Shown: in pieces, positions 4,926 to 31,889 of the stretch
How the letters are laid out: every line of letters begins with the position of its first letter
How positions within the stretch are numbered: the stretch's first letter is position 1
Assembly: GCA_948907985.1 (NCBI GenBank)
Contig: CAQWMM010000005.1
Location: 5-64,004 of the forward strand
Origin: an uncultured Bacillota bacterium
Lineage (GTDB): Bacteria; Bacillota; Dehalobacteriia; UBA4068; UBA4997
DNA: 64,000 bases
Direction of reading: 5' to 3'
Program-made: the position numbers and the translations under genes
The notes under the pieces: model-generated
The model's database searches: none
What the model was told of the DNA's origin: nothing
The model's input: only the letters and a program-made list of their open reading frames with translations

Positions 4926-5035
4926 ACATAAAATAATCCTGATAAAATAAATCCCTTTGCCTGGGCTGCAGAGGGATTTATTTTGCTTTGCGGGCATATA
5001 AGAATATAAATAATTTGGCAAGGATCGTGATAGCT

Positions 5036-5959
5036 ATGTTTGGTAGGGCGGCGGACGCGCACTGTGATACGGTTGGGCGGCTGGGGGCTTTGGATTTGGC
5101 TTTGGGCTGTCCCGAGGCGGCACATTTAGATTTTCCACGGTTGCGACAAAATGTTAAGCTGCAATTTATGGCTTTTTTTCTGCATCAGGCTGCGCCGGAA
5201 CAGGCCTGGCAGGATTTGCGGCGTATGCGCCGTAATTTGCAGGTGGCCATGGAACTTTGCGGTGGGCTGGAGTTGATGCTTAATTTGCGTCAGGCCGGGT
5301 TAAAGCCGGGCGTGCAGCTGGTTTTGGCGGTGGAGGGACTGGATTTGCTGGCTGGCGTTTCATCGGCGGAGGAGTTGTATCGTTTGGGGTTTCGGAGTTT
5401 GGGGCTGTTTTGGAACAACGACAATTTTCTGGGCTGCGGCGCGGACGCGGTGGGCGCGGCGGACTGCGGCCTGACTAAAGCCGGGCGGGATTTTGTGGTC
5501 TATGCCGAAAGCCGGGGGTTTTTGCTGGATTTGGCGCATGCTTCGCAGAATAGTTTCTGGCAGGCGGCGGATTTACAGCGGAAGCCCGTTTTTGTCAGCC
5601 ATGCCTGCTGCCAGGCGCTTTGTCCGCACCGGCGCAATTTATCCGATGAACAGCTGCGCCGCGTCGGCGCAAGCGGCGGTTGGCTGGGCGTTACCATGGC
5701 GCCGGGCTTTTTGCGTCTGGATGGCCAGGCGGCTTTACCGGATTTGCTTAAACATATTCAACACGCAGTGAATTTGGCGGGGGAAGACGCGGTTGGTTTT
5801 GGTTCTGATTTTGACGGCGTGGAGCATTTGCCGCAGGGCATTGCCGGTGCGCAAAGCTGGCCAGATGTGGCGGAGGCGCTGCTGGCGGCGGGGTTCAGCC
5901 AGAGGCAGGCCGAGAAAATTTTGGGCGGCAACCTGCTACGCTTTTTGCGCGAATATTGA
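5036..5959 (+). CDS. Membrane dipeptidase (peptidase M19 family)
   Basis: DAHCDT metal-binding motif near the N-terminus; 307 aa; renal-dipeptidase fold signature. Confidence 0.7.
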   Translation: MFGRAADAHCDTVGRLGALDLALGCPEAAHLDFPRLRQNVKLQFMAFFLHQAAPEQAWQDLRRMRRNLQVAMELCGGLELMLNLRQAGLKPGVQLVLAVEGLDLLAGVSSAEELYRLGFRSLGLFWNNDNFLGCGADAVGAADCGLTKAGRDFVVYAESRGFLLDLAHASQNSFWQAADLQRKPVFVSHACCQALCPHRRNLSDEQLRRVGASGGWLGVTMAPGFLRLDGQAALPDLLKHIQHAVNLAGEDAVGFGSDFDGVEHLPQGIAGAQSWPDVAEALLAAGFSQRQAEKILGGNLLRFLREY

Positions 5960-5962
5960 AAT

Positions 5963-5996
5963 AGCCCTCTCGGCTTTTGACCAGAGAGGGCTAATA
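5963..5996. terminator. Bidirectional rho-independent terminator between convergent dipeptidase and rpmF
   Basis: agccctctcggcttttgaccagagagggct hairpin with A/T runs on both sides. Confidence 0.7.
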
Positions 5997-6017
5997 AACA
6001 GTAAATCCTGTTAAGAT

Positions 6018-6221
6018 TTATTCTTCTTCAACTTTTTCCGCCTTAACAACTTTCACCGGACGGCCTTTATAATAGCCGCACTGCGGGCAGGCATGATGAG
6101 GCAGTTTGAAAGCATGGCACTGCGGACAGAGCGAAATTGCTGTAGCTGTGAAATTGGCATAACGGCCTGCACGGTTCATGCGCCGGTTAGCCTTGGAAGT
6201 TTTCCCCTTTGGTACACCCAT
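6018..6221 (-). CDS. rpmF: 50S ribosomal protein L32
   Basis: MGVPKGKTSKANRRMNRAGRY...CPQCHAFKLPHHACPQCGYY matches the L32 consensus. Confidence 0.95.
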   Translation of the reverse strand: MGVPKGKTSKANRRMNRAGRYANFTATAISLCPQCHAFKLPHHACPQCGYYKGRPVKVVKAEKVEEE

Positions 6222-6224
6222 TTT

Positions 6225-6755
6225 TTACACCTCCTTATCTTTATTCATGGCGTTAAACAAGGCTTGCAGCTTGCTTAAACGTATGTCAATATCCTGATGG
6301 TTACAAGAGCAGGTTTGCCGGTTTAAGTCCGCCCCGCAGTCAGGGCAAAGCCCTTTGCAGTCCGGCCGGCAGAGCGGCTGCATAGGCAGCTCCAGCAGCA
6401 GAGCGCGCAACAAAGCCGGTGCAATATCAATTTCATCACCGCTGAAAAAGCTGACTTCATATTCGTCATCTTCAGAGAGCGCCTCTGGTTTGTTGGTAAA
6501 CGTTTCAGCAATATCGGCGCTTATGGTCTGCTCAAAATCAGCCAGACAGCGCGAGCAGCTAAGCCGCAGTTTGGCCGAGGCGCGGCCTTGCAGTTCCAAA
6601 AAAGGGGCGGCGTTTTCAATCTGGCCGGCAAAATGCAGGCTGCCGGCCAAGGCAAGTTCCGGGTAGCCGTAAGCGGCGGCGTCCACCGGCTCCGCCAGTT
6701 TCAGCTTTTCGGAGCATTGGGTTGTGCTTTTAACTTTTGTAACATTTATTAACAT
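6225..6755 (-). CDS. yceD: YceD/DUF177 protein (23S rRNA accumulation protein)
   Basis: C-terminal CRPDCKGLCPDCGADLN...CSC zinc-ribbon-like motif; directly upstream of rpmF. Start trimmed to the MLINVTK Met. Confidence 0.8.
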   Translation of the reverse strand: MLINVTKVKSTTQCSEKLKLAEPVDAAAYGYPELALAGSLHFAGQIENAAPFLELQGRASAKLRLSCSRCLADFEQTISADIAETFTNKPEALSEDDEYEVSFFSGDEIDIAPALLRALLLELPMQPLCRPDCKGLCPDCGADLNRQTCSCNHQDIDIRLSKLQALFNAMNKDKEV

Positions 6756-19397: not shown

Positions 19398-20036
19398 ATG
19401 CTTTATTTCTGGCAGGGGTTCAGCGTGGGCCTGGCTTATTCCGCGCCGCTTGGCCTGCAAAATCTATTCATCATAAATTCGGCGCTTAGCTGCCGTTTGC
19501 GTCGCGCTCTGCTGATTGCTTTAATCGTGCTGTTTTTTGACGCGGCGCTCTCTTTGGGCTGCTTTTTCGGCATTGGCGCGATTATGCAGCGCTGGTTTTG
19601 GCTGCAAATGTTGGTTTTGCTGGCCGGCGGTTTGATTGTCGGTTTTATTGGCTTGCGCCTGCTGCGCTCGCAACCGCCGGATATTACTTTGAACGCCAAA
19701 CCGCCGTCTGTTCGCCAGACTATTGCCACGGCCTGCGTGGTAACCTGGTTTAATCCACAGGCGTTGATTGACGGCACTATGATGTTAGGCGCTTTTCAGG
19801 TTGGTCTGCCGCCTGGGCAGGGGGCGGCCTTTATCGAGGGCGTGGTTTTGGCCAGCCTGTGTTGGTTTGTGATTTTGACTTTGCTGGTTTCCGGTCTGCG
19901 TGCCAAATTTAACGCTAAAGTGCTGCATATCATCAATTTGGTTTGCGGCGCGGTGATTATTTTTTATGCCGGCAAACTGCTGTGGAATTTTGGACGGTTG
20001 TTGAGTAATTGCTTTGACAACGGCAATGCGTTTTAG
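19398..20036 (+). CDS. LysE/RhtB-type amino-acid exporter
   Basis: 212 aa polytopic; LysE-family N-terminus MLYFWQGFSVGLAYSAPLG. Confidence 0.7.
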   Translation: MLYFWQGFSVGLAYSAPLGLQNLFIINSALSCRLRRALLIALIVLFFDAALSLGCFFGIGAIMQRWFWLQMLVLLAGGLIVGFIGLRLLRSQPPDITLNAKPPSVRQTIATACVVTWFNPQALIDGTMMLGAFQVGLPPGQGAAFIEGVVLASLCWFVILTLLVSGLRAKFNAKVLHIINLVCGAVIIFYAGKLLWNFGRLLSNCFDNGNAF

Positions 20037-20084
20037 GTGAGAAATATAGTTCCAAAAAAATATGACAAATAAGCTACATATAGC

Positions 20085-20345
20085 CTATTTGTCATAATGA
20101 TCCTTGCAGTTGGCGATAATTATTGCGCCGTCTTTTTCCTGGTATACGATGCGATTATAGTCGTCAATACGGCGGCTCCACCAACTGCTTAACTCATCTT
20201 TCAGCGGTTCTGGTTTGCCTATGCCCTCATAGGGGCAGCGCATAATATCTTTAATCAAGGCATTGATACGTTTTAAGGTTTTTTTATCTTCTTGCTGCCA
20301 TTGGCAATATTCCTGCCAGGCCTTTTCTTCCCATAATAAACGCAT
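20085..20345 (-). CDS. yoeB: Type II toxin, YoeB/Txe (RelE superfamily)
   Basis: 86 aa; W..Y..WQ..DKK..KRIN.LIKD..R.P.EGIGKPEPLK..LS.WWSRRI...NRIVY YoeB consensus. Confidence 0.85.
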   Translation of the reverse strand: MRLLWEEKAWQEYCQWQQEDKKTLKRINALIKDIMRCPYEGIGKPEPLKDELSSWWSRRIDDYNRIVYQEKDGAIIIANCKDHYDK

Positions 20346-20350
20346 CGGCT

Positions 20351-20611
20351 TTATTCCTCCAGCAAATCATGCTCTTGTAAGTTTGCCCGGCCGGCTTCAA
20401 TATCAGCAATAACTTTTTTTAAGTATTCCATATTGCTTGGCGAGTAGAAATGATTGACGCTAACCTCAAACGGTATCCGTTGTTCGACTGCCACCTTGCG
20501 GGCAAAGATAGTGAAAGCGGTTGTCATGCTTAAACCCATTTCAGCGCAGGCTTTTTCCATTCTTTTTTTTAAATCCTCATCCATGCGAAAATTAACCATA
20601 ACCTGTGCCAT
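20351..20611 (-). CDS. Type II antitoxin with RelB/DinJ-like RHH N-terminus and YefM-like acidic C-terminus
   Basis: MVNFRMDEDLKKRMEKACAEMGLSMTTAFTIFARKVAVEQRIPFEV is DinJ/RelB-like. Immediately upstream of yoeB, 5-nt gap. Confidence 0.8.
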   Translation of the reverse strand: MAQVMVNFRMDEDLKKRMEKACAEMGLSMTTAFTIFARKVAVEQRIPFEVSVNHFYSPSNMEYLKKVIADIEAGRANLQEHDLLEE

Positions 20612-20657
20612 AGTTTTCCCTCCTTATTAAAACGCTTCTTGGGCGTTGTTCGGATAT

Positions 20658-20686
20658 ATTATAGCTGATTTTGCTTTGTTTGTCAA
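20658..20686 (-). promoter_or_regulatory. Putative promoter of the TA operon (TTGACA-17-TATAAT on – strand), with an adjacent gctttacat direct repeat (20704..20723)
   Basis: Reverse complement of tgtcaa(20681-86) and attata(20658-63) with a 17-nt spacer. Confidence 0.45.
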
Positions 20687-20799
20687 GAATTTATCTAACT
20701 ATTGCTTTACATATGCTTTACATTCTGTCAAAAATTTATTAAAAAAATTATAGAGAACAAAATTTCTATAATTTATTTTTAATTTGCCGGATAGATGTA

Positions 20800-20829
20800 T
20801 TGATTTTGGTGTGGTAGATATGGTATAAT
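20800..20829 (+). promoter_or_regulatory. Putative carAB promoter TTGATT-18-TATAAT
   Basis: tattgattttggtgtggtagatatggtataat. Confidence 0.45.
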
Positions 20830-20881
20830 AAATCAATTTGGAGTAGTTTTTTTGCATATTTTTAGAACGGGAGTGAGGTCT

Positions 20882-21958
20882 ATGCAGGAGTTATATCTGG
20901 TTTTAGAAAACGGCCAGGTATTTGCGGGCCAGTCTTTTGGCTGGCAGGGAGAAGTTACTGGCGAACTGGTTTTTACAACGGCTATGGTCGGCTATTTGGA
21001 AACGCTGACTGATCCCAGCTTTTATGGACAAATGGTTATCCAAACATTTCCATTAATTGGTAATTATGGGGTGATTCCTGCTGATTTTGAAAGCACGAAA
21101 CCACACCTTTGTGCTTATATTGTTCGTGAATGGTGCCAGGAGCCTTCTAATTTCCGTATGGAGGGTAATCTTGACACCTTTTTAATGGAAAATAAGATTG
21201 TCGGCTTATGCGGTGTTGATACGCGGGCGCTGACCAGAATTATTCGGGAAAAGGGCGTGATGAACGCTAAGATAACCGCCAACCCGGAGGTTACGCCGGA
21301 GCTTTTGGCAGAGATTAAGGCTTATACTTTGAAAGATGCCGTAAACGCCGTGAGCAGCCGCGATAAAGAGCCGGTGGGCAGCGGCCGCCGGGTAGTGCTT
21401 TGGGATTTCGGCGCGAAGAATAATATTGCCAAAAATTTGGTTAAACATGGCTGTCAGGTTATCAATATGCCGGCAGACAGCACGGCGGAACAAATTCTGG
21501 CACAGCGTCCGCAGGGTATCATGCTTTCTAACGGGCCGGGGGACCCGGCGGATAATATGCCGATTGTGGCTGAGCTGCAAAAGCTGTTGAACTCCCAAAT
21601 CCCGATGTTCGGTATTTGTATGGGGCATCAGCTGTTGGCGCTGGCCTGCGGCGCTAAAACCGGTAAACTGCATTATGGCCACCGCGGCGCTAACCAGCCG
21701 GTTAAAGATTTGCAGACCGGGCAGGTTTTTATTTCCAGCCAGAATCACGGCTATGAGGTTTTAAATGACAGCCTGCCTGCGGGGGCGCGTCTGCGTTATG
21801 TTAACGCTAACGACAACTCCTGCGAGGGCATTGATTATCTGGACAAGCCGGCTTTTTCGGTGCAGTTTCATCCCGAGGCCGCAGCTGGCCCGCTGGATAC
21901 CGGTTTTTTGTTTGACAGATTTATGGAAATGATAGACGCTAATGGGGAGGGAAGATAA
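20882..21958 (+). CDS. carA: Carbamoyl-phosphate synthase small (glutaminase) subunit
   Basis: MQELYLVLENGQVFAGQSFG; GICMGHQLL catalytic Cys; class-I GATase domain. Confidence 0.95.
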   Translation: MQELYLVLENGQVFAGQSFGWQGEVTGELVFTTAMVGYLETLTDPSFYGQMVIQTFPLIGNYGVIPADFESTKPHLCAYIVREWCQEPSNFRMEGNLDTFLMENKIVGLCGVDTRALTRIIREKGVMNAKITANPEVTPELLAEIKAYTLKDAVNAVSSRDKEPVGSGRRVVLWDFGAKNNIAKNLVKHGCQVINMPADSTAEQILAQRPQGIMLSNGPGDPADNMPIVAELQKLLNSQIPMFGICMGHQLLALACGAKTGKLHYGHRGANQPVKDLQTGQVFISSQNHGYEVLNDSLPAGARLRYVNANDNSCEGIDYLDKPAFSVQFHPEAAAGPLDTGFLFDRFMEMIDANGEGR

Positions 21959-24900
21959 ATGCCGTTAAAATCCGGTATTAAAAAAGTATTAGTGATTGGC
22001 TCCGGCCCGATTGTGATCGGCCAGGCGGCTGAATTTGATTATGCCGGCACGCAGGCCTGTCGGGCTTTGAAAGAAGACGGCCTGGAGGTGGTGTTGGTTA
22101 ACTCTAATCCGGCTACGATTATGACCGACAGCGCTATGGCCGACAAAATTTATATTGAACCGCTGACACTGCCGGTGTTAAAGCGGATTATCCGCAAGGA
22201 AAAGCCGGACAGTATTCTTTCCACCCTGGGCGGGCAGACCGGCCTGACGCTTTCCATGCAGCTGGCCAAGGAGGGTTTTTTGGCGGCTAACAACGTGCGC
22301 TTGCTGGGCGCTCGGCCAGATACGATTGAGCGTGCCGAGGACCGTCAGCTTTTTAAAGAAACCATGCTGAAAATCGGCCAGCCCTGTATACCCTCGGATA
22401 TTGTTACCAATGTGGAGGATGCGGTTAAACTGGCGGAACGCCTGCAATATCCGGTAATTGTGCGCCCGGCCTTTACGCTGGGTGGCAGCGGCGGCGGTAT
22501 TGTTAACAACGAAGCGGAACTGCGCGAAATTGCCGATAACGGCCTGCGCTTATCGCCGATTCACCAGATTTTGCTGGAAAAATCTGTGGCTGGCTGGAAA
22601 GAGATTGAGTTTGAAGTGATGCGCGATAGCAAGGGCAATAACATCACCATCTGCTCTATGGAAAACTTTGATCCGGTGGGCGTGCATACCGGCGACAGCA
22701 TTGTGATTGCGCCGGCGGTTACGCTGGCTGATAAGGAATACCAGATGCTGCGCACCGCGGCTTTGGATATTATCAACGAGTTGCAGGTGGAGGGCGGTTG
22801 CAACTGCCAGTTTGCACTGAACCCGGATAGTTTTGAATACGCTGTGATTGAGGTTAACCCGCGTGTTTCTCGCTCTTCGGCGCTGGCCTCTAAGGCCACC
22901 GGCTACCCGATTGCCAAGGTGGCCACCAAAATTGCAATCGGCTATACTTTGGACGAGATTAAAAATGCGGTTACCGGCAAAACGGCGGCTGCCTTTGAGC
23001 CGGCGCTGGATTATGTGGTGGTTAAATTCCCCAAGTGGCCGTTTGATAAGTTTGTTTATGCCAAACGCGATTTGGGAACCCAGATGAAAGCCACCGGCGA
23101 GGTTATGGCGATTGGCCTGAATTTTGAGCAGGCCTTGATGAAAGCGGTACGCGGGGCGGAAATCGGCCTGAGCGATTTGAACGCCCACCGGCAGCTGGCA
23201 ATGTCGCCGGAAGAAATCCGCGCTGCCCTGCACAGTTGCACTGACGAGCGGCTGTTTGTGATTTATCAGGCCATTAAGCAGGGCGTGGAGCTGGCCGAGA
23301 TTCATAATATCACTAAGATTGATATGTGGTTTTTGCATAAGCTGGCGAATATTGCCCGTATGGAGGCCGAGCTGCGCCAGGGTTATGACCGCGCTAAGTA
23401 TCTGGCGGCCAAGCGGCTGGGTTTCCCGGATAAGGTGATTGCCGCGCTTTCCGGCCAGCCGGTGGATGAGCCGGCGCGCGCGGTTTATAAAATGGTGGAT
23501 ACCTGCGCGGCGGAGTTTGCGGCGGAAACGCCTTATTTTTACTCCACATATGATGAAGAAAACGAGGCCGCGCTTTTCCTGGCGGAGCGGGAAAATCCCA
23601 AACCAACGATTATGGTGTTAGGCTCCGGCCCGATCCGCATCGGCCAGGGCATTGAATTTGACTATGCCTCGGTGCACTGCGTTTGGGCTTTGCAGCAGGC
23701 CGGTTATGAGGTTGTTATTGTCAACAATAATCCGGAAACGGTTTCCACCGATTTTGATACGGCGGACAGGCTTTATTTTGAACCGCTGACCGAGGAGGAC
23801 GTGAGCAATATTATTGCTACCGAAAAGCCCTATGGCGTGGTGGTGGCCTTTGGTGGCCAGACGGCGATTAAGCTGACCGGTTTTCTGGATAAGCAGGGAG
23901 TGCGGATTTTGGGTACCTCGGCTGACAGTATTGACCGGGCGGAGGATCGTGGCCGCTTTGACGAGTTGCTGACCAAGCTGAATATTCAGCGCCCCAAAGG
24001 CGAAACAGTGAAGACCACCGACGAGGCTTTGGCGGTGGCCGAGCGGATCGGTTATCCGGTTTTGATGCGCCCCTCCTATGTGCTGGGCGGCCAGAATATG
24101 ATTATTGCCTTTACGGAGGCGGATATTCGGGAATATATGGCAATTATCCTGGAGCAGAATGTGGATAATCTGGTGTTGATCGACAAATATCTGCAAGGCG
24201 TGGAGCTGGAAATTGACGCGATCTGTGATGGTGAAGATATCCTGATTCCCGGCATTATGGAACACGTTGAGCGCACCGGCGTACACTCCGGCGATTCGAT
24301 TGCCGTTTATCCCTCCTTTAATATTAACGACGATATGGTGCAGGTGATTATTGAAACCACCCGCAAACTGGCTGTGGAGTTGGAAACCCGCGGCCTGGTG
24401 AATATTCAGTATCTGATTAAAGATAATCAGCTTTATGTGATTGAGGTTAATCCCCGCTCTTCGCGCACCATTCCGTATTTAAGCAAGGTTACCGGCGTGC
24501 CAATGGTGGATTTGGCTACCCGCGCGCTGCTTGGCGAAAAGCTGGCTGATATGGGCTATGGCACCGGGCTTTATCCTACGCCGGTATACTGCGCGGTTAA
24601 GGTGCCGATTTTCTCCTTTGAAAAACTGCTGAATGTGGACAACCAGCTGGGGCCGGAAATGAAGAGCACCGGCGAGGTTCTGGGTATCGGCTCTAATTTT
24701 GAGGAGGCTATTTATAAAGGCCTGGTGGCGGCTGGCTATAATCTGGAGCAAAAGGGCGGCCTGTTCGTTACCGTTAACGACCGCGACAAGGCGGAGATTG
24801 TGCATGTGGTGAAGAAGTTCGCCGATATGGGTTTCGCGATTTACGCCACCGCCGGCACCCGCAAGGTTTTGCAGGACGCCGGTATTGAGGCGGTTTTTGT

Positions 24901-25996
24901 GGAAAAAATTCATGAGGGCGCGGAAAACGCCGTTAAATTGATGGAAGAGGGCAAGCTGAATTATGTAATTTCCACCTCGGCCAAGGGGCGCAACCCGCAA
25001 AAAGACAGCGTCATCACCCGGCGTAAGGCGGTTGAGCGGGGCATTCCCTGCCTGACCTCGATTGATACGGCTAACGTGCTGGCCGACAGTCTGCATAGCC
25101 TGTATACCCAGGAAAGTATTGAGCTGGTGGATATTAACAACCTGCGGCGCGAACTGATTAAGCTGCCTTTTACCAAAATGCAGAGCTGCGGCAATGATTA
25201 CATTTATTTTAACTGCCTGGAGCGCCAGTTGGACAATCCTGCCGGGCTGGCGGTGCGTTTGTGCCGCCGCAACCGTGGTATCGGCGGCGACGGTGTGGCG
25301 ATGATCTGCCCGTCGGACAAGGCGGACGTTTATGTTAAAGTTTACAATGTTGACGGCACTAACGGCGGTATCGGCGGCAACGCTATCCGCTGCGTGGGCA
25401 AGTATCTTTATGATAACGATATTGTGCATAAAGATGAAATCAGCATTGAAACTGATTACGGTATCAAACGTCTGAAACTGATTAAGCGCAACGGCAAGGT
25501 TTGGGGGGCCTCGGTTTTGATGGGCAAACCCCAGCTGACGCCGGCGGCGCTGCCAATGCTGGCCGCAGGCGAGGATTTTATCAATAAACCGATTGAGGTT
25601 TTGGGCAAGATTTATCTGGCGACCTGCCTTTCGGTGGGCAACCCGCATATGGTGATTTTCACCGATGATTTGGAGGCTGTGCAGCTGGAAAAAATTGGCT
25701 ATCATTTTGAACACCATGAATGGTTCCCGGAGCGGGTGAACGTGGAGTTTGTGAAAGTGTTCAGCCGGGACATTCTCTATATGCGTGTTTGGGAGCGGGG
25801 TAACGGTTATACCAACGCCTGTGGCACCGGCTCCTGCGCGGCGGTGGTGGCGGCGGTTTTGAACGGCTATTGTGATAACGGCCGGGAAATTACCGTTAAA
25901 CAGCCCGGCGGCGATTTGATCATCAGCTATGACGGCGAGAACATCAGTATGACCGGCAGCGCGGAAAAGCTGTTTGAGGGTGTTGTCGAAATATAA
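21959..25996 (+). CDS. carB: Carbamoyl-phosphate synthase large subunit fused in frame to a C-terminal DapF-like (diaminopimelate epimerase fold) domain
   Basis: 1345 aa. Residues about 1-1070 are canonical CarB (two ATP-grasp halves, oligomerisation domain, MGS-like domain ending ...ESIELVDINNL). It continues without a stop into FTKMQSCGNDYIYF...ACGTGSCAA (DapF motifs). Confidence 0.85.
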   Translation: MPLKSGIKKVLVIGSGPIVIGQAAEFDYAGTQACRALKEDGLEVVLVNSNPATIMTDSAMADKIYIEPLTLPVLKRIIRKEKPDSILSTLGGQTGLTLSMQLAKEGFLAANNVRLLGARPDTIERAEDRQLFKETMLKIGQPCIPSDIVTNVEDAVKLAERLQYPVIVRPAFTLGGSGGGIVNNEAELREIADNGLRLSPIHQILLEKSVAGWKEIEFEVMRDSKGNNITICSMENFDPVGVHTGDSIVIAPAVTLADKEYQMLRTAALDIINELQVEGGCNCQFALNPDSFEYAVIEVNPRVSRSSALASKATGYPIAKVATKIAIGYTLDEIKNAVTGKTAAAFEPALDYVVVKFPKWPFDKFVYAKRDLGTQMKATGEVMAIGLNFEQALMKAVRGAEIGLSDLNAHRQLAMSPEEIRAALHSCTDERLFVIYQAIKQGVELAEIHNITKIDMWFLHKLANIARMEAELRQGYDRAKYLAAKRLGFPDKVIAALSGQPVDEPARAVYKMVDTCAAEFAAETPYFYSTYDEENEAALFLAERENPKPTIMVLGSGPIRIGQGIEFDYASVHCVWALQQAGYEVVIVNNNPETVSTDFDTADRLYFEPLTEEDVSNIIATEKPYGVVVAFGGQTAIKLTGFLDKQGVRILGTSADSIDRAEDRGRFDELLTKLNIQRPKGETVKTTDEALAVAERIGYPVLMRPSYVLGGQNMIIAFTEADIREYMAIILEQNVDNLVLIDKYLQGVELEIDAICDGEDILIPGIMEHVERTGVHSGDSIAVYPSFNINDDMVQVIIETTRKLAVELETRGLVNIQYLIKDNQLYVIEVNPRSSRTIPYLSKVTGVPMVDLATRALLGEKLADMGYGTGLYPTPVYCAVKVPIFSFEKLLNVDNQLGPEMKSTGEVLGIGSNFEEAIYKGLVAAGYNLEQKGGLFVTVNDRDKAEIVHVVKKFADMGFAIYATAGTRKVLQDAGIEAVFVEKIHEGAENAVKLMEEGKLNYVISTSAKGRNPQKDSVITRRKAVERGIPCLTSIDTANVLADSLHSLYTQESIELVDINNLRRELIKLPFTKMQSCGNDYIYFNCLERQLDNPAGLAVRLCRRNRGIGGDGVAMICPSDKADVYVKVYNVDGTNGGIGGNAIRCVGKYLYDNDIVHKDEISIETDYGIKRLKLIKRNGKVWGASVLMGKPQLTPAALPMLAAGEDFINKPIEVLGKIYLATCLSVGNPHMVIFTDDLEAVQLEKIGYHFEHHEWFPERVNVEFVKVFSRDILYMRVWERGNGYTNACGTGSCAAVVAAVLNGYCDNGREITVKQPGGDLIISYDGENISMTGSAEKLFEGVVEI

Positions 25997-26118
25997 CCTA
26001 AAAATTTTAGAAAAAAATAAGCTAAAAAATAACAGAAAACATTTTAGCACGGCAAGTGTAATATTAATAGAAGAAAAAATTTAAGGCAAAAGAATTTGCA
26101 ATTAAGGTGGGGTTATTG

Positions 26119-26619
26119 ATGATAGAAAAGCCGGCAGAGATTGACTTGCGGCCACTGGAGCCTGTTCTGGCGGAGTATGCCGCCAAACCGGGCTCTCTGA
26201 TTACAATTTTGCAGCAGACGCAGGATATTTATGGTTATCTGCCCAAAGCGGCGCTGGCGGAAATCAGCCGGGCGGTGGGCGCAACGCCGGCCAAGGTGTT
26301 GGGCGTGGCCTCGTTTTACACCCAGTTTCGGCTGGAGCCGGTGGGGCGTTATCTGATTATGCTCTGCCAGGGAACGGCCTGCCATGTTAACGGCTCGGAA
26401 AGTATCAGCGCGATTATCAGCGAGGAGTTGGGCATTGCCGACGGCCAGACGACGGCGGACGGGCTTTTCAGCCTGAAGCACGTCGCCTGTTTGGGCTGCT
26501 GCTCTTTGGCCCCGGCCATGATGATTAACGGCGAGGTTTACGGTAATTTGACTGCCGATTCAGTCCGCAAGGTTCTGCGCGGCCTGCGTGATTCGGCTGT
26601 GTCGGAGGAGGAAAAATAA
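26119..26619 (+). CDS. NuoE/HydC-like [2Fe-2S] thioredoxin-fold subunit (StnA-like)
   Basis: CQGTACHVNGS....CLGCCSLAP cysteine pattern of NuoE-family 24-kDa subunits. Confidence 0.85.
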   Translation: MIEKPAEIDLRPLEPVLAEYAAKPGSLITILQQTQDIYGYLPKAALAEISRAVGATPAKVLGVASFYTQFRLEPVGRYLIMLCQGTACHVNGSESISAIISEELGIADGQTTADGLFSLKHVACLGCCSLAPAMMINGEVYGNLTADSVRKVLRGLRDSAVSEEEK

Positions 26620-28380
26620 ATGGCAATACGCGTGAAAATTGGTTTGGGCAGCTGTGGTATGGCAGCCGGCGCCCGACAGACGCAGACCGCTTTGGACGAG
26701 GCTCTGACGGCGGCAGGCTCGGATATTCGCAGTGAGCGCACCGGCTGTATCGGCCTGTGTTTTGCCGAGCCGCTGGTAGAGGTGGTTGACGAGGCGGCGG
26801 GACAGAGCTGGTTTTATGGCCGGGTGGACGCGGCGGCGGCGGCCAAAATTGTGGACGGCCATATTTTGGGCGGTCAGCCGCAGACTGATCTGCTGCTGAC
26901 TGATGAGGAACTGCATTTTTTACGCAGTCAGCACCGGGTGGCTCTGCGCAACTGCGGCGTAATTGATCCGGAAAATATCGACCACTATATTGAGCGGGGC
27001 GGCTATCAGGCTTTGCGCAAGGCGGTTGTGGAACTGGAGCCGGAAAAGATAATTGAGATTGTTAAAACCTCCGGCCTGCGGGGCCGGGGCGGGGCCGGGT
27101 TCCCCACCTGGTTTAAGTGGGACGCCTGCCGTAAAGCCGAGGGCGACGTGAAATATGTGATCTGTAATGCGGACGAGGGCGACCCCGGCGCGTTTATGGA
27201 CCGCAGTGTTTTAGAGAGCGACCCGCACAGCGTTTTGGAGGGCATGGCGATTGCCGCGCGGGCGATTGGCAGCAGCCAGGGCGTAATTTATGTGCGCGCT
27301 GAATATCCGTTGAGTATTCACCGGCTGGAGCTGGCGATGCGGGCGGCCAGAGAACGCGGCTTTTTGGGCCAAAATATCTTTGGCAGCGGCTGGGATTTTG
27401 ATATTTACATCAAGGCCGGCGCGGGCGCTTTCGTCTGCGGCGAGGAAACGGCGCTGCTGGCCTCGCTGGAGGGTGAGCGCGGCATGCCGCGGCTGAAGCC
27501 GCCTTTCCCGGCGCAAAAAGGTTTTTGGCAACGCCCCAGCAACATCAATAACGTGGAAACTTTTGCCAATGTGGCCTGGATTATCAATAACGGCGGAGAG
27601 GCCTTTGCCGCTATGGGAACGGCAACCAGCAAAGGCACCAAGGTTTTTGCGCTGGCCGGTAAAATTAAGCGCGGCGGCCTGGTGGAGGTGCCAATGGGTA
27701 TGACTCTGCGCGAGGTGATTTTTGACATTGGCGGCGGCGTTAAAGGCGGCGGCCAGTTTAAGGCGGTGCAGATGGGCGGCCCCTCCGGCGGCTGTATCCC
27801 GGCCAGCCTGCTGGATACGCCGGTGGATTATGAAAGCATTAGCCAAACCGGGGCGATTATGGGCAGCGGCGGTATGATTATTATGGACGACAGCACTTGT
27901 ATGGTAGATATGGCGCGGTTCTTTTTGGACTTTACGCAAAAGGAAAGCTGTGGCAAGTGTATTCATTGCCGGATTGGCACCAAACGAATGCTGGAAATTT
28001 TGGAGCGTATCACCAAAGGCGAGGGGCAGCCGGGCGATGTGGAGCTTTTGCAGGAGCTGGGGCGGCAGATTCAGGCTGGCTCGCTCTGCGGATTAGGCGC
28101 GTCGGCCCCCAACCCGGCGCTTAGCACAATTCGCTATTTTGCCGACGAGTATCGGGCGCATATTGAAGAGCATAAATGCCCCAGCCATAGCTGCCGGCCC
28201 TTGCTGCAATATCGTATTAAGCCGGATAAGTGCCGGGGCTGTTCGCTTTGCGCCCGCAAATGCCCGGTAGGGGCGATCAGCGGCGAACTGCGCGAGGTTT
28301 TTGTCATTGATATGGATAAATGTATTAAATGCGGCAACTGCGCTGCAACCTGCCGTTTTGGCGCGGTGGAAACAGTATAA
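26620..28380 (+). CDS. NuoF/HydB-like NADH-binding FMN/Fe-S subunit with extra N-terminal [2Fe-2S] and C-terminal 2x[4Fe-4S] domains (StnB-like)
   Basis: GRGGAGFPT (FMN/NADH site); CGKCIHCR (N3 cluster); CRGCSLCARKCP and CIKCGNCAATC ferredoxin motifs. Confidence 0.85.
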   Translation: MAIRVKIGLGSCGMAAGARQTQTALDEALTAAGSDIRSERTGCIGLCFAEPLVEVVDEAAGQSWFYGRVDAAAAAKIVDGHILGGQPQTDLLLTDEELHFLRSQHRVALRNCGVIDPENIDHYIERGGYQALRKAVVELEPEKIIEIVKTSGLRGRGGAGFPTWFKWDACRKAEGDVKYVICNADEGDPGAFMDRSVLESDPHSVLEGMAIAARAIGSSQGVIYVRAEYPLSIHRLELAMRAARERGFLGQNIFGSGWDFDIYIKAGAGAFVCGEETALLASLEGERGMPRLKPPFPAQKGFWQRPSNINNVETFANVAWIINNGGEAFAAMGTATSKGTKVFALAGKIKRGGLVEVPMGMTLREVIFDIGGGVKGGGQFKAVQMGGPSGGCIPASLLDTPVDYESISQTGAIMGSGGMIIMDDSTCMVDMARFFLDFTQKESCGKCIHCRIGTKRMLEILERITKGEGQPGDVELLQELGRQIQAGSLCGLGASAPNPALSTIRYFADEYRAHIEEHKCPSHSCRPLLQYRIKPDKCRGCSLCARKCPVGAISGELREVFVIDMDKCIKCGNCAATCRFGAVETV

Positions 28381-28394
28381 GGGAGGCTGGATTA

Positions 28395-31300
28395 ATGGCA
28401 GAAAATAAAAAAATGTTTACATTAACCATCGACGGCCAAAAGCTGACGGCCACTGCCGGCGAAACCATTTTGGCGGTGGCGCGCCGGGCCGGGATTGAGA
28501 TCCCCACCCTGTGCCATAACGACAGTCTGAAGCCTTACGGCGCCTGCGGCCTTTGCGTGGTGGCTATGGAGGGCAGCCCGCGGCTGTTCCGCGCCTGTGC
28601 GACGGAGGCGGCTGAGGGGCAGGTTATTTATACCGATACCGAGGCGGTGGTGAGCGCCCGCCGTACTGCTTTGGAGCTGCTGCTTTCCAATCATAAGGGG
28701 GATTGCGCCGCCCCCTGCCAGCTGGCTTGCCCGGCCGGAACCGATTGTCAGGGCTATGTTGGGCTGATCGCCAATAATCGCTTTGCCGAGGCCTTGCAGC
28801 TGATTAAAGAGAGTTATCCGATTCCGGCCTCTTTGGGGCGGGTTTGCCCGCACCCCTGCGAAACGGCTTGCCGCCGCGCCAAGGTGGAGCAGCCAATTAG
28901 TCTGGCACGGCTGAAACAATTTGTCGCCGACGTGGATTTGAACACCGGCAGCCCTTATCTGCCGGCTAAAAAGCCGGCCACCGGTAAGCGTGTGGCGGTG
29001 GTGGGCGGCGGCCCCGCCGGTTTGACGCTGGCCTATTTTATGGCGCTGGCCGGTCATCAGGCGGTGATTTTTGAGATGATGCCCCAAGCCGGCGGTATGC
29101 TGCGCTATGGCATACCGGAATATCGCCTGCCTAAAAATATTCTGGATATGGAAATTGCCCTGATTGAAAAGTTGGGCGTAGAAATTCGCACTAAATGTAT
29201 GCTGGGGCGGGATGTGCAGTTTGCGGATTTGCAGCGGGATTTTGACGCTGTTTATCTGGCCAACGGCGCCTGGCAGAGCGCCGGCCTGCGCTGCGAGGGC
29301 GAAACCCTGCCCGGCGTGGTGGGCGGCATTGACTTTTTGGGCAATGTGGCCCTGGGCAAGCTAAGCAAATTGGGCGGCCGCGTGGCGGTGGTGGGCGGCG
29401 GCAACACCGCTATGGACGCCTGCCGTACGGCGGTACGCCTGGGCGCGCAGGAGGTTTATGTGCTTTACCGGCGCACCGAGGCGGAAATGCCGGCGGAGGA
29501 TGTGGAAATTCGCGAGGCCCGCGAGGAGGGCGTGCAGTTTAAGTTTCTGGTAGCGCCCACCCGGATTATTGGCCATGCCCAGCATGGCCGCGCGGTGGCG
29601 ATTGAACTGCAAAAAATGGAACTGGGCGAGCCGGACGAAAGCGGCCGCCGCAAACCGGTGCCGGTGCCGGGCGGTATTGAAACCCTGCCGGTGGATCTGG
29701 TGATTGCGGCGATCGGCCAAAAGGTGGTGCCGCTTAACCTGGGTGAGGGCGCGCCGGAGCTGCAATATACCAAATGGCAGACGATTGCCGCCGACGAACG
29801 CACCTACGCGACCTCTATCCCCGGGGTTTTTGCCGGCGGCGACGCGATTAACGACGGCCCGGGTATTGCGGTGCAGGCGGTGGCGCATGCCAAACAGGCC
29901 GCCAAGGTTATCGACGAATATTTGCGCACTGGGCAGGTTGACGCGGCTTTAAATGCAGAAAAATATTTGCATAAAAACGGCGAACCGGACGCGGAATTTT
30001 TCAAAACCAAATCGCGGGTGCAGCGGGTTTCAATCAGTTATCTGCACCCGGAATACCGCAAGAGCAATTTTATGGAAGTGGCCAAGGGCTTTGAGCCAAT
30101 GGAGGCTATGTATGAGGCCAGCCGCTGTTTGGAGTGCGGCTGCGGCGATGTTTTTGAATGCCGTCTGCTGCATTATGCCCGACAATATAATGTACAGCCG
30201 CAAAAATACGCGGGTGAGATTAATATAACGCCTAAGGATGACAGCCACCGTTTTATTGTGCGGGATATGAGCAAGTGTATTTTGTGCGGTAACTGCGTGC
30301 GCGCCTGCGAGGAAGTGGCCGGCGTGGGAGCGCTGGGCTTGGATGGGCGCGGTTTCCCCACGGTGGTGGGCGCTGATTTTGGTCTGCCGCTGGGCGATAG
30401 CAGCTGCCGGGGCTGCGGCCAGTGCGTGGCGGTGTGCCCCACCGGCGCTTTGCAGGAACGCCAGCCCTGGGAAAAGCCGGTGCCGCTGGATTGTGAAACA
30501 CAGAGCGGCGTTTGTAACTTCTGCGGCAATGGCTGTAACTTGCAAATTAAACATAAAGGCGACTATCTGGTTAAGGTAGAGCCAGCCGAGGGCGGCAGAC
30601 TTTGCCAGACCGGGCGTTTTGGCTATCCGCACGCCATGACGGCCACCGGCGCGCCGACCGCCGGTATTGATTTTGGGCAGGGCATGACGGAGGCCCGGGC
30701 GGCGGACGCTCTGCGCGCGGCGGCCGCGGCGATTAATTCGCTGCGCGAAACCGACGGCACCGACACCATCGGCGTGGCGGTGGGCGATCAGCTGACCAGT
30801 GAAGAACTGTTCCTGTTGAAGTTTATGGCCGAAGAAGTTATTGGGACGGAATATATTTATGCGCCTAATGCGGAAAGCGGCGGCCTGGGCGACGTCTGGG
30901 GTTTTGACGCATCTACGGCCACCGTGGCCGATGTGGAGGCGGCGGATTTGCTGCTGGTCTTTGGCGATGAACTGGCAGAAAATTACCCGATTTTGGGTTC
31001 TCGTCTGCAAAAGGGCGTTAAAGCCGGACAAAAACTGCTGTTGGTGGCCGATAAACCGGGCGTACTGGCGGACTTTGCGGCCAGTCTGTATCAGCCGCAG
31101 GGTAATTTGCAGCTTTTAAGCCAACTGGCGCAGGGCGGAGAGAGCGCGGCGGCGCAGGAAATTTTGGCGGCTTTGGCCGGGGCGAAACGCCCGGTTTTGC
31201 TGCTGGACCGAAGCCGGCTGACGCGTGAGGCGGCGCAGTGTGTGGCGGCGCTGGCGGCTGGGGGCGGCAAACAGCTGCCGGTTTTGCAGTTGCAGGCCAG

Positions 31301-31889
31301 AGCCAACAGCCAGACGGTGCGCGCTTTGGGAATCCAGCGGAATATGCGGCAGCTGGCGGCGGATATTGCTGCCGGCAAGCTGAAAGGTCTGTTGCTTTTC
31401 GGTGTGGATTTGCCGGCGGAATTGGCCGAAAATATGGAATTTGTGCTGGAGGCCGACGCTGGTTATGGCCGGGCTTATCCTTATGCCTCGGTGCTGCTGC
31501 CGCTGGCCGGGTTCGGCGCGGTAACCGGCAGCTACGTCAATTTTGAGGGCCGTTTGCAAAAGGTTCAGGCGGCGGTGCGTCCCAATTTGGGCGAAGAGAA
31601 CTGGCAGCTTTTGGCCGGCCTGGTCAACGCCTTAAATCGCAATTACAAATTTACGGATTTACAGCAAATTCGCGACGGTTTGGCGGCAGCCTGCCCGGAA
31701 TATGCGGCGGCCTTGTCAGCAGCTGCCGGCGCGGCGGTTTATTTGAGCGCGGACGGTAAATTGCCCCAAACCCCGGCAGTTTTGCCGGCGGAACTTAAGC
31801 TTGCCGATAATTTGGCGGCACTGCCTTTTGCCCGGGAATATGAGCAGGCCAGCACGGCGGTAAAAAGCTGGCAAAAAATGAAGGTGTGA
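28395..31889 (+). CDS. NuoG/HydA-N-terminus-like Fe-S subunit with inserted GltD/NfnB-like NADPH:FAD oxidoreductase domain and degenerate FDH/molybdopterin-like C-terminal domain (StnC-like); no H-cluster
   Basis: N-terminal plant-type 2Fe-2S (CHNDSLKPYGACGLCVV). GltD-like Cys cluster plus two Rossmann motifs (VAVVGGGPAGL, VAVVGGGNTAMD). CILCGNCVRAC and CRGCGQCVAVCP ferredoxin motifs. CNFCGNGCNL molybdopterin-oxidoreductase Fe4S4 motif. Truncated MoCo-like domain without catalytic Cys/Sec. Confidence 0.8.
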   Translation: MAENKKMFTLTIDGQKLTATAGETILAVARRAGIEIPTLCHNDSLKPYGACGLCVVAMEGSPRLFRACATEAAEGQVIYTDTEAVVSARRTALELLLSNHKGDCAAPCQLACPAGTDCQGYVGLIANNRFAEALQLIKESYPIPASLGRVCPHPCETACRRAKVEQPISLARLKQFVADVDLNTGSPYLPAKKPATGKRVAVVGGGPAGLTLAYFMALAGHQAVIFEMMPQAGGMLRYGIPEYRLPKNILDMEIALIEKLGVEIRTKCMLGRDVQFADLQRDFDAVYLANGAWQSAGLRCEGETLPGVVGGIDFLGNVALGKLSKLGGRVAVVGGGNTAMDACRTAVRLGAQEVYVLYRRTEAEMPAEDVEIREAREEGVQFKFLVAPTRIIGHAQHGRAVAIELQKMELGEPDESGRRKPVPVPGGIETLPVDLVIAAIGQKVVPLNLGEGAPELQYTKWQTIAADERTYATSIPGVFAGGDAINDGPGIAVQAVAHAKQAAKVIDEYLRTGQVDAALNAEKYLHKNGEPDAEFFKTKSRVQRVSISYLHPEYRKSNFMEVAKGFEPMEAMYEASRCLECGCGDVFECRLLHYARQYNVQPQKYAGEINITPKDDSHRFIVRDMSKCILCGNCVRACEEVAGVGALGLDGRGFPTVVGADFGLPLGDSSCRGCGQCVAVCPTGALQERQPWEKPVPLDCETQSGVCNFCGNGCNLQIKHKGDYLVKVEPAEGGRLCQTGRFGYPHAMTATGAPTAGIDFGQGMTEARAADALRAAAAAINSLRETDGTDTIGVAVGDQLTSEELFLLKFMAEEVIGTEYIYAPNAESGGLGDVWGFDASTATVADVEAADLLLVFGDELAENYPILGSRLQKGVKAGQKLLLVADKPGVLADFAASLYQPQGNLQLLSQLAQGGESAAAQEILAALAGAKRPVLLLDRSRLTREAAQCVAALAAGGGKQLPVLQLQARANSQTVRALGIQRNMRQLAADIAAGKLKGLLLFGVDLPAELAENMEFVLEADAGYGRAYPYASVLLPLAGFGAVTGSYVNFEGRLQKVQAAVRPNLGEENWQLLAGLVNALNRNYKFTDLQQIRDGLAAACPEYAAALSAAAGAAVYLSADGKLPQTPAVLPAELKLADNLAALPFAREYEQASTAVKSWQKMKV

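Follow-up and report, generated by a model that had tools for sequence, protein, structure and literature searches.

A diaminopimelate epimerase-like domain without its first catalytic cysteine at the C terminus of carbamoyl-phosphate synthetase in an uncultured Bacillota bacterium

Carbamoyl-phosphate synthetase (CPS) stands at the branch point between arginine and pyrimidine synthesis, and the textbook account of its regulation is built almost wholly on the enzyme of Escherichia coli. In a 64-kb stretch of DNA from an uncultured Bacillota bacterium (contig CAQWMM010000005.1 of assembly GCA_948907985.1; the whole stretch is referred to below as the window), carB, the gene encoding the large subunit of CPS, runs on past the allosteric domain into a domain related to the diaminopimelate (DAP) epimerase DapF, in which a glycine takes the place of the first of the two catalytic cysteines. 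What, then, is an epimerase-like domain of this kind doing at the allosteric end of CPS? Our analysis indicates that it is probably not a normal DAP epimerase. That it is a DAP-binding pseudoenzyme seated on the CPS allosteric domain, performing no epimerization and probably regulatory in function, is the reading that we favor and one that we consider evenly balanced between right and wrong; that Cys-less domains of this type are allosteric sensors tying CPS to the DAP pool in many gut Clostridia is a more tentative proposal.

The fusion gene and its epimerase-like domain

The fusion gene spans positions 21959-25996 (+ strand) as a single open reading frame (ORF) of 1345 amino acids, in which CarB proper (21959-25105, +; residues 1-1049) is followed by a linker (25106-25168, +; residues 1050-1070, …LYTQESIELVDINNLRRELIK…) and by the DapF-like domain (25169-25987, +; residues 1071-1343). 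The junction of the two parts (…ESIELVDINNLRRELIKLPFTKMQSCGNDY…) is read through in frame with neither a stop nor a frameshift, as a sequence-only reading of this locus had proposed. The ELVDINxxR motif at the junction is conserved throughout the fused family (consensus of 121 fused proteins), and the linker, whose predicted local distance difference test score (pLDDT) is 78-85 in a two-domain AlphaFold2 (AF2) model, is not predicted to be disordered.

That the source is a metagenome-assembled genome (MAG), and that a single base change turns TGC into GGC, would be compatible with a fusion generated by a sequencing indel or mis-assembly and a Cys-to-Gly exchange generated by a base-call error. 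A continuous ORF bearing the glycine is, however, found in more than 12 protein clusters of 86-95% identity from independent assemblies, and the same ORF is present in relatives of 70% identity, including the cultured Sporobacter termitidis. A protein identical to the window fusion is encoded by the NCBI MAG GCA_948746715.1; the relatives of 86-95% identity that share both the 1345-residue ORF and the glycine (Gly1139) come from separate ENA, Logan and NCBI assemblies; and the nearest named organism, Candidatus Avidehalobacter gallistercoris, carries a fusion with 87% identity to that of the window. Since independent assemblies give the same continuous ORF, a sequencing indel is excluded, and the probability that the fusion or its glycine is artefactual is negligible. 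The DapF-like domain is probably translated solely as part of the fusion, since the junction (ctg att aag ctg cct ttt acc aaa atg) offers no ATG, GTG or TTG codon at the position where standalone DapFs begin; the sole methionine near the start of the domain sits within the first strand (FTKM). Two other explanations, namely that an internal start yields the domain as a separate protein and that the fusion arose by chance read-through of an ORF, were considered and rejected.

The domain is a complete two-lobed DAP epimerase fold. It matches the DapF equivalog model TIGR00652 at 245-250.6 bits (residues 1067-1345) against a cutoff of 114.65, and the Bacillus anthracis DapF structure 2otn with E = 3e-74 and 46% identity in the Foldseek alignment. 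Modeled alone with AF2, it has a pLDDT of 94.7 and a predicted template-modeling score (pTM) of 0.92, and ligand-bound DapFs are its closest structural neighbors in Foldseek (9mro, template-modeling score [TM] 0.93 and root-mean-square deviation 1.6 Å; 3ejx, TM 0.92), the TM to 2otn being 0.86; this bears out the earlier proposal of a full DapF fold at the CarB C terminus. A construct consisting of the allosteric and DapF-like domains (residues 930-1345) was modeled with a pLDDT of 91.7 and a pTM of 0.83, which suggests that the DapF-like domain is held in a fixed arrangement on the CPS allosteric domain, insofar as pTM can speak, indirectly, to the rigidity of packing.

The active site departs from that of canonical DapFs at one essential position. 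Gly1139 (GGC, 25373-25375, +), within GGIGGNAIRC, occupies the place of the first catalytic cysteine (Cys73 in Haemophilus influenzae, Cys83 in Corynebacterium glutamicum), and glycine is found there in all close relatives of the window domain. The second catalytic cysteine (Cys217, or Cys221 in C. glutamicum) is kept as Cys1288 (TGT, 25820-25822, +) within NACGTGSC. Both assignments agree with the sequence-only reading; the GNA that replaces GNG in the first motif, in contrast, is no peculiarity of this protein but normal in these Clostridia, the cysteine alone being unusual. Positions are numbered here after H. influenzae DapF, the motif residues of which fall at their published numbers, and the alignment to 2otn shows the same Cys-to-Gly exchange. 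In C. glutamicum DapF (CgDapF), the C83A and C221A substitutions almost completely abolish activity (PMC5296763). Since Gly1139 replaces Cys73 and the equivalent CgDapF mutants are almost inactive, the two-base chemistry of the epimerase appears to be broken in the window domain.

The remainder of the pocket looks intact in the alignment. All 12 of the DAP-site residues scored (N11, N64, G74, N75, N157, H159, N190, E208, R209, T214, G218 and T219) are present, among them the equivalents of the DAP-binding N11, N64, N75, N157, N190, E208, R209 and S/T219 (N1079, N1130, N1141, N1228, N1261, E1279, R1280 and T1290, respectively). Alanine mutants of the residues that hold DAP in CgDapF (N15, N74, N85, N159, N194, E212, R213 and T223) are almost devoid of activity (PMC5296763), and eight of our 12 scored positions correspond to CgDapF sites with such near-inactive mutants. 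Selection also appears to have maintained the domain: among four genomes of the window clade, its ratio of nonsynonymous to synonymous substitution rates (dN/dS) is 0.05-0.11, the range also obtained for the CarB allosteric domain and slightly above that of CarB as a whole (0.03-0.05), values that are approximate given the saturation of dS (>1) and that point to a domain under purifying selection rather than in decay. The loss of an essential catalytic residue, the retention of fold and length, and purifying selection, all three seen here, are among the features by which a pseudoenzyme is recognized. Set against canonical DapFs (TIGR00652; 2otn, 9mro, 3ejx, 1gqz/2gke, 5m47), the window domain thus shares the two-lobed fold (TM 0.86-0.93), the substrate contacts and the second cysteine, and differs in the glycine at the first cysteine, a TNGGIGG loop, an Asn for Ser at position 211 (Asn1282; AAC, 25802-25804, +) and a Ser for Gly at position 8 of the HG.GND motif (Ser1076; AGC, 25184-25186, +; glycine in standalone DapFs), as well as in forming the C-terminal part of CarB instead of a free protein of ~280 residues.

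Loss of the first cysteine among fused domains

The exchange is not confined to the window lineage. We pooled 320 DapF domains, 143 standalone and 177 fused, from searches for standalone and fused homologues and from a sample of GTDB genomes. Cys73 is present in 143/143 standalone domains and absent from 89 of the 177 fused ones, where Gly, Ala, Ser or Phe takes its place (Fisher p = 2e-29). The GTDB sample, for which the search patterns did not span the Cys73 region, gives the same picture by itself among the matches listed, with Cys73 absent from 0/38 standalone versus 26/42 fused domains (p = 2e-10). In 21 fused domains both thiols are gone, position 73 being Gly or Ser and Cys217 being replaced by Ser (among 241 domains, the GTDB sample apart). 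On a neighbor-joining tree built after removal of the active-site columns, parsimony requires ~12 changes of the Cys73 state (an approximate figure, the tree being a simple one), compared to ~78 with shuffled labels; because it requires that many, Cys73 appears to have been lost repeatedly.

The Cys-less domains are otherwise conserved in the positions expected to matter for binding and altered at two others. Of the 89 Cys-less domains, 83 retain all 12 DAP-site residues and the other six have one change each, at a mean pairwise identity among these domains of 58%. At position 211, Ser predominates where Cys73 is present (225 of 231 domains) and Asn where it is absent (62 of 89); position 8 is Gly in 143/143 standalone DapFs, and 67 of the 89 fused domains not of the Cys/Cys type have Ser, Thr, Ala or Cys there. 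Both positions co-vary with position 73, and the clade to which the window belongs is recognizable by Gln followed by Ser or Thr at positions 7-8, by TNGGIGGNA before the helix and by Asn at position 211. Cys-less domains are also more distant from the standalone consensus than are fused domains that keep Cys73 (64% versus 73% identity, p = 9e-22). Cysteine loss that recurs, is confined to fused copies, leaves the pocket intact and is accompanied by changes at positions 8 and 211 appears not to have been described to date.

Two further sets of sequences deserve mention. A clade of fused proteins combines Phe73 with a new cysteine at position 211 (MFGNA…ERGCGET; P0206, P0208, P0209, P0222, P0227, P0230, P0236 and L014:5001-5834), and this arrangement may represent a relocated thiol, with catalysis by a shifted active site. 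In addition, a search of representatives at 50% identity, in which the fused family collapses to a few entries and which is therefore no measure of the frequency of the fusion, found both cysteines in 137 of 150 diverse DapF relatives and returned six apparently standalone DapF homologues lacking one or both of them (AC, CS, SC or SS; P0257, P0289, P0309, P0361, P0362 and P0382). Free DapF-like proteins of the Cys-less kind thus occur, if rarely, among more distant lineages.

Could the fused domain nevertheless be a working DAP epimerase, and the fusion a bifunctional enzyme, with Cys1288 acting as a base and the part of Cys73 taken over by water or by a residue such as Ser1076? The retention of all substrate-binding residues and of the second cysteine, and a score far above the DapF equivalog cutoff, would fit such an enzyme, as would the change of Gly8 to Ser or Thr alongside the loss of Cys73, as if a hydroxyl had moved into the site; the Phe73/Cys211 class resembles a relocated thiol. 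Another dapF, moreover, was found neither in the 64-kb window (tblastn) nor in the Avidehalobacter locus, for which ±10 kb was covered. Against this stand the near-inactivity of CgDapF C83A and C221A (PMC5296763), the intolerance of the standalone DapFs sampled to the loss of Cys73 (0/143) and the greater divergence of the Cys-less domains from the DapF consensus. The occurrence of Gly, Ala, Ser or Phe at position 73 depending on the lineage, with Ser217 in addition in 21 relatives, also fits poorly with a conserved alternative acid/base. We consider a bifunctional enzyme unlikely.

The sequence-only reading had left to be settled whether the genome holds a separate, bona fide dapF, and the window does not provide one; at least three other genomes, however, pair a fused and a standalone copy. 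In Neglectibacter caecimuris (L019) and in the Acutalibacter MAGs L021 and L034, the fused carB-dapF gene is followed, at a distance of 0-2 kb, by a standalone dapF that is fully canonical. The fused copy of L019 (1-3198; standalone dapF at 4968-5843) has undergone the changes G8→A and G10→R, that of L034 (1737-5864; standalone dapF at 5865-6722) the changes G8→T, G10→S and S211→N, and that of L021 (221-4314; standalone dapF at 4965-5846) lacks both cysteines and carries N64L, N75S, H159S and E208K. Because a canonical dapF adjoins a diverged fused copy in these three genomes, a cell does not necessarily depend on the fused domain for its epimerase. The carB portion of L021 is frameshifted near nt 2555, so that the gene is decaying or the assembly is at fault.

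The L021 protein, the fused domain of which is still full length in spite of lacking catalytic and binding residues, raises the alternative of a structural appendage, in which the DapF fold would be kept as a dimerization or scaffolding module that shapes CPS oligomers and senses no ligand. DapFs are dimeric with a conserved interface (PMC5296763; PMC6061791), an aromatic residue matching the dimer-critical Y268 is kept in the window as F1339, and the two-domain model, by suggesting fixed packing on the allosteric domain, would suit a scaffold as well. A scaffold has no need of a polar pocket, yet 83/89 Cys-less domains keep 12/12 pocket residues at 58% mean identity, and the frameshifted L021 gene may simply be a damaged one. 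A purely structural role is in our view possible but rather doubtful.

Distribution and genomic surroundings

The proposal that a CPS carrying such a module is not a described architecture stands in one sense only. A full-text literature search found no publication on a CarB-DapF fusion or on a DapF pseudoenzyme. The architecture itself is nonetheless common in databases and not categorically new: the best 120 full-length homologues are all CarB + DAP_epimerase fusions of ~1345 residues (120/120), from Oscillospiraceae, Ruminococcaceae, Christensenellales, S. termitidis DSM 10068 and others, with some Treponema carriers also known, and the fusion is present, among the matches listed, in 42 of 80 sampled GTDB species genomes matching DapF motifs. 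Relatives therefore share the fusion, in the same ~1345-residue form, and UniRef labels the S. termitidis protein (WP_073078757.1 / UniRef100_A0A1M5Y2E9) automatically as a "Multifunctional fusion protein". That the fusion might prove to be a common architecture in this clade with both cysteines present, which would have spoken against a Cys-less module, turned out to be half right: the fusion is common, but no more than roughly one in two of its members carries both cysteines. The window protein is thus a member of a family of Clostridia CarB-DapF fusions (S. termitidis; Oscillospiraceae bacterium CM UOO37014.1; Ca. Avidehalobacter gallistercoris) with the same length, domain order and ELVDINxxR motif, which databases name simply carB or fusion protein. 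About half of these proteins keep both cysteines and may be bifunctional; the window protein belongs to the G73/N211 branch.

The fusion also occurs outside Clostridia, in Treponema/Spirochaetaceae MAGs (L017, L035, L040, L047 and L058) and a Selenomonadaceae MAG (L075), mostly as the A73/N211 type, which suggests either horizontal transfer or mis-binned contigs. The peptidoglycan of Treponema is based on ornithine, not DAP, and a DAP-binding domain would be a curious possession there. We also note that JGI names a number of free DapFs of ~280 residues (279 amino acids; among them P0027, P0050, P0067, P0081, P0091 and P0112) "carbamoyl-phosphate synthase large subunit", which may reflect the transfer of annotation from fused proteins.

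The CarB portion of the window protein has the appearance of an ordinary, functional CPS large subunit by its sequence. It matches NF003671 at 1495 bits (cutoff 599) and TIGR01369 at 1450 bits, and its domains follow the order of two preATP-grasp/ATP-grasp units, an oligomerization domain and an allosteric domain (Pfam CPSase_L_D1/D2/D3). The MGS-like allosteric domain (24794-25057, +; residues 946-1033; PF02142, 67.4 bits) is homologous to that of E. coli CPS (CarB 933-1073), which binds uridine monophosphate (UMP), inosine monophosphate (IMP) and ornithine. In an alignment to 1bxr, the E. coli effector residues K954, T974, T977, K993 and T1042 are conserved in the window, and E892, which we take to be an ornithine contact, is replaced by Val. 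Roles in the E. coli effector site have been assigned to T977 and K993 for UMP and to T1042 for ornithine (PMC6245113). E. coli CarB stops after this allosteric domain, whereas the window protein adds to it a 280-residue fold of a ligand-binding type.

The small (glutaminase) subunit is encoded directly upstream by carA (20852-21958, +; NF009475, 450.8 bits), the stop codon of which abuts the carB start (TAAATG). In the mechanical ORF list carA begins at TTG 20852 and encodes 368 amino acids; the gene call on the identical MAG contig gives 358 amino acids, equivalent to a start at ATG 20882, which is probably the true one. A promoter-like site 5' of carA (20800-20829, +; TTGATT-18-TATAAT with an extended TG) was identified solely by its pattern, which agrees with the consensus at 10 of 12 positions. 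Positions 19900-26700 gave no Rfam match to a leader or riboswitch, and there is no arg, pyr, dap or lys operon around the fusion gene, the neighbors of which are housekeeping, toxin-antitoxin and redox genes; without such an operon or leader, the genomic context offers no clue to function.

Upstream of carA lies a LysE-type translocator gene (19398-20036, +) with weak, below-cutoff matches to the L-lysine exporter and the arginine exporter ArgO; its position just upstream of the carAB-dapF-like operon may point to a link with lysine or arginine, and it is not kept beside carA in the Ca. Avidehalobacter locus L002. Between this LysE/ArgO-family gene and carA, a YoeB-type toxin and RelB-type antitoxin pair (two 86-residue ORFs; 20085-20611, -) is preceded by a perfect TTGACA-17-TATAAT promoter-like match at 20686-20658 (-), and is missing at the equivalent place in L002. 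Downstream of carB (26107-31889, +) follow genes for a NuoE-like 2Fe-2S protein, a NuoF-like flavoprotein and a 1186-residue protein that joins a GltD-like NAD(P)H oxidoreductase to a NuoG/formate dehydrogenase-like molybdopterin domain, an arrangement found after carB both in the window and in loci L002-L005.

These surroundings bear on a further alternative, namely that the domain performs new chemistry as a one-base, DapF-derived enzyme for a DAP-like substrate, for instance as a lyase/dehydratase or as an isomerase working in one direction. There is a parallel in the Cys/Thr members of the proline racemase superfamily, the 3-hydroxyproline dehydratases, and dehydratases and isomerases of the superfamily are among the Foldseek matches of the domain (6r76, 4k7g, PhzF). 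Cys1288 and the entire pocket are kept, and the loop before position 73 has been remodeled in a conserved manner (TNGGIGGNA), with Asn1282 co-varying. DapF homologues have, besides, repeatedly switched substrate, as in HisR (PMC11602996) and the O-ureidoserine racemase 7vdy. Close relatives of the same clade, however, lack both thiols (G73/S217), no candidate substrate or pathway context is apparent among neighbors that are housekeeping or redox genes, and there is no evident reason for joining such an enzyme to CPS. We judge this alternative quite improbable.

A proposed role for the domain

The favored reading, that of a DAP-binding pseudoenzyme on the CPS allosteric domain, leads to the following scheme. 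The carB product would be translated together with carA to yield a CPS large subunit extended by a DapF-derived domain in which the two-thiol mechanism of epimerization can no longer operate. The ligand, LL- or meso-DAP or a compound closely similar to them, would enter the cleft between the lobes and draw them together, by analogy with DapF, the lobes of which close upon ligand binding (PMC5296763). Closure would then be passed to CPS through the packing of the domain on the allosteric domain, altering the activity or the oligomeric state of the enzyme. The metabolic logic would be that DAP feeds peptidoglycan and lysine synthesis, while carbamoyl phosphate feeds UMP, and through it UDP-N-acetylmuramic acid (UDP-MurNAc), as well as arginine. 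Fused forms that are still catalytic would, in the sensor reading, represent an ancestral, dual-purpose state. The non-epimerase status of the domain, the binding of DAP, the regulation of CPS and the direction of that regulation are all matters of inference.

Several known systems offer precedents for parts of this scheme. Mammalian CPS1 retains an inactive glutaminase-like domain, and thus a dead enzyme homologue within a CPS polypeptide, albeit a different domain (glutamine amidotransferase, GATase) at a different position in a eukaryotic protein. That a DapF fold can act on another enzyme by protein contact is illustrated by E. coli DapF, which activates RppH in a separate protein-binding role (PMC6061791); unlike the window domain, E. 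coli DapF is catalytically competent and free-standing, and its partner is an RNA pyrophosphohydrolase, not CPS. Repurposing of the DapF scaffold is further exemplified by Fusobacterium nucleatum HisR, the DcsC O-ureidoserine racemase (7vdy) and PddB, described as active racemases with a changed substrate, HisR keeping its two catalytic cysteines, C67 and C209 (PMC11602996); in the window domain it is the pocket that is kept and a catalytic residue that is changed.

The earlier suggestion of a possibly non-catalytic module binding DAP or another amino acid is consistent with the conserved substrate contacts, the purifying selection and the recurrence of the loss in the fused family; the sensor that it was proposed to form, between lysine or peptidoglycan precursors and the supply of arginine and pyrimidines, is the more tentative part. 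A number of points weigh against such a module. The retention of Cys1288 would allow single-base chemistry in the window lineage, and position 8, where it is Ser or Thr, might offer a hydroxyl close to the place that the thiol has left. No second epimerase for this lineage was found in the 64-kb window or within ±10 kb of the Avidehalobacter locus. The fused domain of L021, judged by its missing binding residues, could not be a DAP sensor and would favor a purely structural role. The crudeness of the tree, the saturation of dS and the indirectness of pTM as a measure of packing count on the same side.

The fusions also set a trap for annotation: they pass the DapF equivalog threshold, even those that are probably no epimerases, so that genomes would be wrongly credited with a DAP epimerase, and an epimerase so miscredited can mask real gaps or alternative enzymes when the lysine and peptidoglycan pathways of gut bacteria are reconstructed. 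Many anaerobes, including many of the dominant gut Oscillospirales, carry this uncharacterized extra domain on the allosteric end of their CPS. If it is a DAP sensor, it would directly link the supply of cell wall and lysine precursors to nucleotide and arginine synthesis; it would amount to a new class of CPS regulation derived from a dead epimerase, through which the supply of pyrimidines and UDP-sugars, and that of arginine, would be made responsive; and it would provide a clean natural case of the conversion of an enzyme into a sensor.

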